From assembly GCF_003334385.1 (NCBI RefSeq), contig NZ_QOWN01000038.1: a stretch of DNA of 42,323 bases; one strand, 5' to 3'. Every line of letters starts with the position of its first letter. Positions within the stretch are counted from its first letter, which is position 1. This stretch comes from Escherichia coli (GTDB lineage: Bacteria > Pseudomonadota > Gammaproteobacteria > Enterobacterales > Enterobacteriaceae). The notes beneath the pieces were generated by a model. It searched no databases. It had not been told where the DNA came from and worked only from the letters and a program-made list of their open reading frames with translations. A program made the position numbers and the translations under genes. Shown here piece by piece: positions 39,559 through 41,211 of this stretch.

Positions 39559-40849
39559 CAGGGCAAGATTACGAAAGCCCGCTCCTCGCAAGGACTGACG
39601 CCAGATAGTTTCTGTCCATGGCTGCTTTTCGCATCTTACGTCTTAACCCTGCCTTGAATACCTTATCATTCGTCAAAATATTAATAGCAATGTGCCGTAT
39701 CCCTGAAAATAATTCTGCTGCATTTCCTCTTCTTATTTTGCAGTCGTCTTCATTCATTACCACGTCCAGACGCCAGTGCAGCTTATTCTCCACGTGCCAG
39801 TGGTTTCGGATCGCTGTGGCGAACTTTTCTGCGGTTAAATCAGCAGAACTGATATAATATCTGACCGTCATTTCTGGCTCTTTCTTTTGTTCTGCTATTA
39901 TGGACCGAAAGGAGACTGCCACGCATAATTTCTTCAGCCCTTTCCATTCAAACGTGAAATCAATAAGTTCATCAGGGACATCGCAAACAATATGAAGACG
40001 GATTTCTTCTCTGCCGTGACTCTTTTCACTAATTGCGTAACTGTCATGCTCTGGATTATTTAATTCTTTCAGCGGAAATTTTTCCTCAAAGGCTTTATTT
40101 AGCCGCCCCTGGGTTCCTTTTACCGCGAATAAATAATCACCTCCCTGTTTTTGTATCTTCTCTGCAATATCTTTCTGGCAACCCATCGCATCAGTTGTGA
40201 TGATTTTTCCTTTAATATCCAGCATGTTAAGAAGTTCTGGGATAGCTGTAATCTCATTAGATTTCTCATCCGTCTTGATCTGTCCGATGACCAGACTGTG
40301 CATTGTTGAGAACGCACTAATGACATGAATCGCTCCCCTGCGGCGACTCTTGTCATAAGAGTGCCGGAGCGTTTTTCCATCAATTGCAATGACGTCTTTA
40401 TCATCTGAAGAATGGCAGTCACGCATCCAGTTAATAAAGCACTCGTGAAATTTTGCAGGACTGATACAGGATACAACTCTGGCAATGGTATCGTGAACAG
40501 GAATACCATTTTCAAAATCACCATATTGCTTCAAAAAATCGAGATGTGTTTCCCCAAAATCCTCTATATCTTCCCAACCTTCTGCACCAGAAATAACGGC
40601 ACAAATAGTCAACAGTAGAATATCTGACAATTTATGTTCCACTTTCCTGGCTTGTCTGTAATCGGGGATAATAGAAATATGTTCCATCAATTTTTTAAGT
40701 TCCATTTTGTTCTCCTTAATTATGTAAGAAGTATTTGATCATGTATAAGCAATAAAAAACAGCTTCAGGTAATAAGGAATATCTCAATTTTTAAACATAA
40801 AATGCGAATTATTTAGTGCAAAAAGTGAACTTTTGATGATCTTTCCCTG
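39559..40849 (-). mobile_element. ISAs1-family (H-repeat-type) insertion element, about 1.29 kb
   Basis: Imperfect terminal inverted repeats: left end cagggcaagattacgaaagc (39559-39578) versus revcomp of right end cagggaaagatcatcaaaag (40830-40849), 14 of 20 identical; the single transposase ORF fills the element; the right boundary coincides with the point where the adjacent yibA-like reading frame loses sense. Confidence 0.6.
39569..40705 (-). CDS. yhhI: H-repeat-associated (ISAs1-family) transposase
   Basis: 378-aa [67 protein letters not shown]..., characteristic of Rhs-linked H-rpt transposases. Confidence 0.9.
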
Positions 40850-41211
40850 GCCGTTGACTCGATTGCCGTAGCTCGAACGCAAGCACTCTTATCATTCAAT
40901 GCCATATTGTTCAAAATATTAAAAACATTATCTTCGCATTTTTTGCAAATTTATATTTGCCCGAGTATAAATGCTCCGATATCTCTACGGATATAATTTT
41001 TGTCAGTGCAGAATTCAATTGCCAATCTAACAGCGTCTTGCCCCCCTCTTAACTGTAATACTCTGGCAGATGAAATCCTTTTCAAGGAATTGCGATCATC
41101 AAGTAAGCGAAATAATTCATCATCATTTAGTTTCTTACATTTATTATATAAACCATGCTCTTTACTTGCCTTTCTTTTCTGGTATGTATTTGACATTGCA
41201 GGAACCTCCAT
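40813..41211 (-). pseudogene. yibA-like HEAT-repeat gene remnant (premature TAA plus truncation at the IS boundary)
   Basis: 86-aa ORF MEVPAMSNTYQKRKASKEHGLYNKCKKLNDDELFRLLDD...ILGQI stops at TAA (40951-40953); the same frame continues in sense as ICKKCEDNVFNILNNMALNDKSACVRATAIESTA for 34 codons and then degenerates exactly at the IS terminus (~40849). Resembles my recollection of the rhsA-linked YibA N-terminus. Confidence 0.5.

Follow-up and report, generated by a model that had tools for sequence, protein, structure and literature searches.

The RhsA C-terminal region blocks recovery from stationary phase, and expression of yibA, the ORF directly downstream of rhsA, neutralizes this block, according to work by Vlazny and Hill as cited in Poole et al. 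2011 (PMC3150448). On this basis, yibA is the immunity gene cognate to the C-terminal toxin of RhsA. The same paper describes IS elements that disrupt Rhs/CDI orphan arrays, as is also the case at the locus considered here. Jackson et al. 2009 contains no mention of yibA or of the H-repeat. Full-length YibA is a 280-aa HEAT-repeat protein (Pfam HEAT_2; 466 bits against NCBIfam NF007244) with a solved structure (1OYZ), and its strongest HEAT matches lie in residues 139-276.

The locus and its annotation

We analyzed a 42,323-nt stretch of Escherichia coli DNA (hereafter the window), the last 7 kb of which hold the rhsB locus, oriented in reverse. Over 4321 bp, the window and K-12 MG1655 share 99.7% identity, and the neighbors are in the K-12 order, rhsB-yhhH-yrhC-yhhI-yhhJ-rbbA. 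The feature under study is yrhC (b4552), which is, with a probability of about 0.88, a decayed orphan immunity gene of RhsA type, paralogous to yibA, at the far end of the RhsB element. This gene is already known: MG1655 RefSeq lists the pseudogene yrhC (b4552) at the same place, between yhhH and yhhI, and PGAP annotates it in many strains as "HEAT repeat domain-containing protein" or "lyase" with the remark "internal stop; incomplete; missing C-terminus". Both lesions, the stop and the missing 3´ part, are thus in the annotation record. The RefSeq yrhC comprises only the 246 bp up to the stop, whereas the PGAP pseudogene runs past the stop to the IS junction (40846). The features of the region are as follows.

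35545-38280, plus strand: rbbA (annotation)
to 39404, plus strand: yhhJ (annotation)
39495-39558, plus strand: IS1397-like (IS3 family) terminal fragment, 64 bp, matching the end of complete IS1397 copies
39559-40849, minus strand: ISEc1/H-repeat (H-rptB), ISAs1 family, 1291 bp, with ends and length as in the D7 copy
39569-40705, minus strand: yhhI, the H-repeat transposase gene (annotation)
40850-40950, minus strand: in-frame part after the stop, YibA codons 83-115 plus two bases of codon 116
40951-41196, minus strand: yrhC ORF as in K-12, 81 codons (YibA 1-81) plus TAA at 40951-40953
41205-41209, minus strand: ribosome-binding site GGAGG, ending 8 nt before the ATG at 41196 (read from the sequence)
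41217-41248, minus strand: RhsA-type toxin ORF, of which a 3´ stub is left (final 10 codons and TAG at 41217-41219), by homology to K-12 rhsA
41301-41684, minus strand: yhhH, presumed immunity gene of the RhsB tip (annotation)
41656 to the window end, minus strand: 3´ end of rhsB (annotation)

The minus-strand frame runs for 86 codons (41211 down to 40954) to the TAA at 40951-40953 and continues for 34 sense codons (ICKK...IESTA), which are followed by 11 unrelated codons and a stop at 40813-40815. Translation reproduces exactly the ORF, the stop and the 34 in-frame codons given in a preliminary description, and the point at which that description had protein-like sense being lost, ~40849, was precise: yibA homology ends after ...TCAACGGC at window base 40850 (nt 347 of 843), and base 40849, directly adjoining, is the final base of the ISEc1/H-repeat. 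While the 86-codon frame is real, its first ATG, at 41211, is not the start. RefSeq K-12 and PGAP both use the second ATG, at 41196, giving 81 codons; the 41211 ATG of the window is GTG in K-12 yibA, and the GGAGG falls within the first five codons of the 86-codon ORF.

Similarity to YibA had been proposed from the sequence, and if the stop is translated as Lys, the resulting 116 residues have 97% identity to residues 1-116 of K-12 YibA (BLASTP E = 2e-82), far beyond chance. At the DNA level, window positions 40850-41248 (minus strand) match the final 32 nt of rhsA and nt 1-347 of yibA at 97% identity. A four-way DNA alignment of the window, K-12 yrhC, K-12 rhsA-yibA and the corresponding sequence of strain NT1W25 has AAA at the Lys82 codon in yibA and TAA in the window and in K-12 yrhC, bearing out the single-base AAA to TAA change that had been suggested. 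Against NCBIfam NF007244, the read-through fragment covers profile positions 1-117 of 285 (E = 2.8e-46) and scores 158 bits, below the full-length cut-off of 275. yrhC is a pseudogene of the YibA family (NF007244/PRK09687, HEAT_2) and not a member protein.

An immunity gene probably left behind by tip replacement

Homology to K-12 rhsA/yibA (locus L004, 6286-6688) begins not at the start of yibA but 32 nt before the rhsA stop codon, and beyond position 41248, further upstream, the window sequence is the yhhH module. yrhC is thus preceded by the final 10 codons and the stop codon of an RhsA-type toxin ORF, with the spacing found in K-12 rhsA-yibA. The 32-nt stub and its junction with yhhH are the signature expected when an incoming module of tip and immunity gene takes the place of a resident tip but not of the resident immunity gene, which stays behind as an orphan. 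Given that YibA is reported to neutralize the RhsA toxin, yrhC can be read as a decayed orphan immunity gene. The preliminary description had placed yibA-type genes in a modular cassette downstream of Rhs tips; this view holds and, going by PMC3150448, can be made specific, as the gene is the cognate RhsA-CT immunity gene with a toxin stub upstream.

The same yhhH-stub-yibA junction is also present at the rhsA locus of strain NT1W25, where yibA is full-length but frameshifted, and therefore the composite moved between the two rhs loci. In other words, when yibA moves between the rhsA and rhsB loci, it carries an RhsA-type toxin stub with it. At its origin, we envisage an rhs locus with an RhsA-type toxin tip followed by yibA, into which an RhsB-CT plus yhhH module would have recombined; the old toxin tip would have been lost save for its last 32 nt, with yibA staying downstream as an orphan immunity gene. 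A related arrangement was seen in long arrays of other genomes (L008, 12471-12905; L015; L016; L017), where all that is left of the RhsB tip is an 87-bp 3´ stub, with a frameshifted yhhH behind it. The pattern, a toxin stub with an immunity gene, is that of the 32-nt RhsA stub and yibA, and suggests that crossovers with incoming modules take place repeatedly close to the 3´ end of the toxin ORF already present.

The H-repeat border and the loss of the 3´ part of the gene

Across E. coli genomes, the nikR-yhhJ interval, which corresponds to window positions 39405-42323 (compared with loci L006, L007 and L009), is found in three states. It can be empty, with nikR and yhhJ 8 bp apart (FDAARGOS_1283), it can hold a 6-kb PTS/aldolase/FGGY-kinase sugar island (S3, 118UI), or it can hold the Rhs element. 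In genomes that lack the Rhs island, the match to the window ends at ~39490. K-12-type junctions were detected in 1816-1840 Rhs-bearing genomes, and genomes of the K-12 type have retained an intact yibA copy at their rhsA locus. The same H-repeat left junction by yhhJ, joined to a different right junction, was detected in 177 more E. coli genomes, from which we sampled GMF054, CFSAN061763, 98210 and CNR65D6. The question of whether intact paralogues exist at this position, raised by the preliminary description, can be answered from these genomes: all four carry an intact 843-bp yibA (280 aa, WP_001521516.1) at the rhsB locus. Going outward from the principal rhs gene, the array in each of the four comprises several orphan modules, an 87-bp RhsB-tip stub, a frameshifted yhhH and yibA, and beyond yibA a yibJ-like orphan Rhs tip, later the H-repeat, the 64-bp IS1397 end fragment and yhhJ. 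A SEL1-like gene and an IS630 fragment lie between the orphan Rhs tip and the H-repeat in three of the four. In strain 98210, an IS1 follows 22 bp of that flank and no SEL1 gene is annotated.

The element at the truncation point has the characteristics of the ISAs1 family. The 378-aa yhhI transposase scores 412 bits against NF033564 (cut-off 70), the terminal inverted repeats match at 15 of 19 positions (CAGGGCAAGATTACGAAAG / CAGGGAAAGATCATCAAAAG), and the 1291-bp length and the ends are as in other copies. Its outer flank is occupied by the 64-bp IS1397-like fragment, which is inserted in the REP sequence that follows yhhJ and reaches to the left end of the H-repeat; complete IS1397 copies, for example the one between panM and livJ in strain M00057, match the fragment at their end. 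The edge of the Rhs island is made up of IS remnants nested in one another. Strain SCU-104 matches the yhhJ/H-repeat junction stretch with 100% identity, but there another immunity gene (YbbC/YhhH family, 267 bp) follows rhsB.

A 10-bp target-site duplication was not found at the window H-repeat, the left flank being GTCCTGTATT and the right flank GCCGTTGACT. Such duplications are made by the element, as strain D7 (L020, NZ_CP010150.1, 2506-3796) has an ISEc1 that disrupts the T6SS gene tssA and is flanked on both sides by a perfect 10-bp duplication, GTCAACTGAC. The D7 duplication is direct evidence, at the level of sequence, that H-repeats transpose; transposition activity of H-repeats was stated as not observed in a genome paper (PMC3032704). 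The lack of a duplication indicates that the window copy underwent rearrangement. A degenerate 9-bp duplication (7/9), comparing the K-12 left flank with the GMF054-type right flank, was considered as a mark of the original insertion and rejected, because the left flank is an IS1397-like end and the right flank an unrelated IS630-like fragment. In strain c1-17 (L019, 2501-3792), an ISEc1 at an Rhs island border likewise has no target duplication, and dkgB is cut by the element; H-repeats without a duplication at the edges of Rhs islands may be a general pattern. In Origami2-DE3 (L001, NZ_CP084529.1), the block of yrhC, yhhH and the rhs tip is placed between ydcC (the RhsE H-repeat) and lnt, and not between yhhI and rhsB; this implies either an assembly error or a large rearrangement by way of homology between H-repeats or rhs sequences.

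The left junction, comprising yhhJ, the REP sequence, the IS1397 fragment and the H-repeat, is common to the two arrangements, and the window corresponds to the long arrangement minus 2182 bp (L008, 9838-12019) adjoining the right end of the H-repeat. The loss of these 2182 bp at the H-repeat end, together with the lack of a duplication, therefore points to an IS-adjacent deletion and not to a simple insertion. The best reading is that the truncation is a one-ended deletion beside an H-repeat already present at the border of the island. This revises the suggestion that an insertion had removed the 3´ part of the gene: the truncation does fall exactly at the H-repeat end, but it reflects a 2.2-kb adjacent deletion. 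We propose that ISEc1/H-repeat was already at the yhhJ edge when ~2.2 kb would have been deleted from its exact right end, most likely by transposase-mediated intramolecular transposition, taking with it yibA codons 117-280, the yibJ-like orphan Rhs tip, the SEL1-like immunity gene and the IS630 fragment. The H-repeat of the 177 long-arrangement genomes has an internal deletion (window positions 39606-40318 are missing), and thus neither arrangement is the direct ancestor of the other and a common ancestor is needed for both.

The same end structure would also result if a second ISEc1 had inserted into codon 116 of yibA and then recombined with the border H-repeat, deleting the 2.2 kb and one IS copy. 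The simple insertions with 10-bp duplications that ISEc1 does make, as in D7 tssA, are in keeping with this route, as is the resemblance of the yibA break, GTTGAC, to the D7 target, GTCAAC/GTTGAC. It demands two events where an adjacent deletion demands one, however, and the intermediate it predicts, with the 3´ part of yibA at the left end of the H-repeat, was seen in none of the 5426 genomes. The search for this reciprocal junction (3´ part of yibA plus H-repeat left end) gave 0/5426 genomes with at least 80% query coverage, which also speaks against a simple insertion into yibA. We consider insertion followed by recombination an unlikely, though still credible, alternative to one-ended deletion.

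Order of the lesions and present state

To establish which truncated genomes lack the stop, the truncation junction with AAA restored was used as the query, and a perfect match was counted as an AAA allele. AAA was present in 6 of the 1816 truncated genomes; the other ~1810 show at least one mismatch to the AAA query, and TAA is the state in ~99.7% of genomes with the truncation. Of the six AAA alleles, four were examined. The allele of OSUCMP42NDM (L011) is otherwise identical to the K-12 allele at every site, and the other three have yibA-type bases at five to six further upstream sites (six if 40953 is counted, in AS19) together with the yrhC-type base at 40885. At the rhsB locus, the full-length yibA copies have an uninterrupted ORF in all four genomes sampled, with AAA read directly in GMF054, and hence cannot carry the stop.

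Because six truncated genomes are without the TAA, the truncation probably came first and the nonsense mutation later, an order that these comparisons favor modestly. In the truncated copy, Lys82 AAA would then have changed to TAA, and this allele would have risen to ~99.7%. Some AAA alleles could have arisen by gene conversion from the yibA of the rhsA locus, which weakens the argument about the order. Indeed, if a full-length yibA at the rhsB locus had gained the TAA and been truncated only afterwards, the six AAA alleles would be reversions or conversions; the run of yibA-type SNPs in three of the four examined alleles is what conversion predicts, and the prevalence of TAA among truncated copies (~99.7%) also agrees with an early stop. 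The intact ORFs of the full-length copies at the locus (4/4 sampled) argue against this order, as does the L011 allele, whose K-12 haplotype elsewhere is more easily explained by a surviving precursor than by a reversion at that one site, and we regard nonsense before truncation as improbable.

The 81-codon product corresponds to 29% of YibA, and we expect no function to be left in yrhC. A promoter and terminator scan of positions 40700-41800 gave nothing above the shuffled expectation, and any transcription of yrhC would probably be read-through from rhsB-yhhH. It is hardly plausible that the 81/86-codon ORF is a live small gene in which an N-terminal HEAT fragment has been kept for some function. 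In favor of a live gene, the ribosome-binding site and start codon are kept, no terminator-like site separates yrhC from yhhH, and the allele is widespread. Against this, the ORF retains just 29% of the repeat protein and lacks its strongest HEAT matches (residues 139-276), conservation is as high after the stop as ahead of it, as is typical of recent decay, an intact paralogue is present in the same genome, and both curated annotations (RefSeq K-12 and PGAP) call a pseudogene. Without the stop, the truncated gene would encode YibA 1-116 plus an 11-residue IS-derived tail. If the near-fixation of TAA (~1810/1816) reflected a selected second-site "clean-up" of a damaged immunity gene, this YibA 1-116 fusion might disturb the interaction of intact YibA with RhsA-CT or be harmful in some other way; we think such selection very improbable compared with drift.

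The significance of the locus goes little beyond bookkeeping, and what it records is ordinary genome decay. In yrhC, the decay of an Rhs toxin-immunity array can be traced, from tip replacement through IS-adjacent deletion to decay by point mutation.

Compared with its nearest relatives, the window copy is closest to K-12 yrhC, with which it has the locus, the neighbors, the TAA and the H-repeat junction in common. The two differ by a single base within the pseudogene, at window position 41157, which is C in the window (His14) and T (Tyr) in K-12; T is also found in the four AAA-allele strains and in every yibA copy compared, and the window sequence is therefore not that of MG1655 itself. With yibA (b3594), the window copy has in common the last 32 nt of rhsA, the 20-nt spacer and the ribosome-binding site. 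However, yibA is intact at 280 aa and lies behind a complete RhsA toxin tip, whereas the window copy has a stop in place of Lys82, is missing codons 117-280 and sits after yhhH. Copies of ISEc1 elsewhere border Rhs elements, as the window copy does; unlike a simple insertion, the window copy has flanks of unrelated origin, the IS1397 fragment and yibA. Finally, the arrangement of yrhC fits the model of C-terminal displacement and orphan modules (PMC2935791, PMC3150448). Like Rhs/CDI orphan modules, yrhC is what remains of an earlier tip and its immunity gene, and it follows the main rhs gene and the immunity gene that belongs to it. A typical orphan module retains a core stretch and the whole toxin tip, whereas the window copy keeps only 32 nt of toxin, so that yrhC was an orphan immunity gene and is now itself dead.
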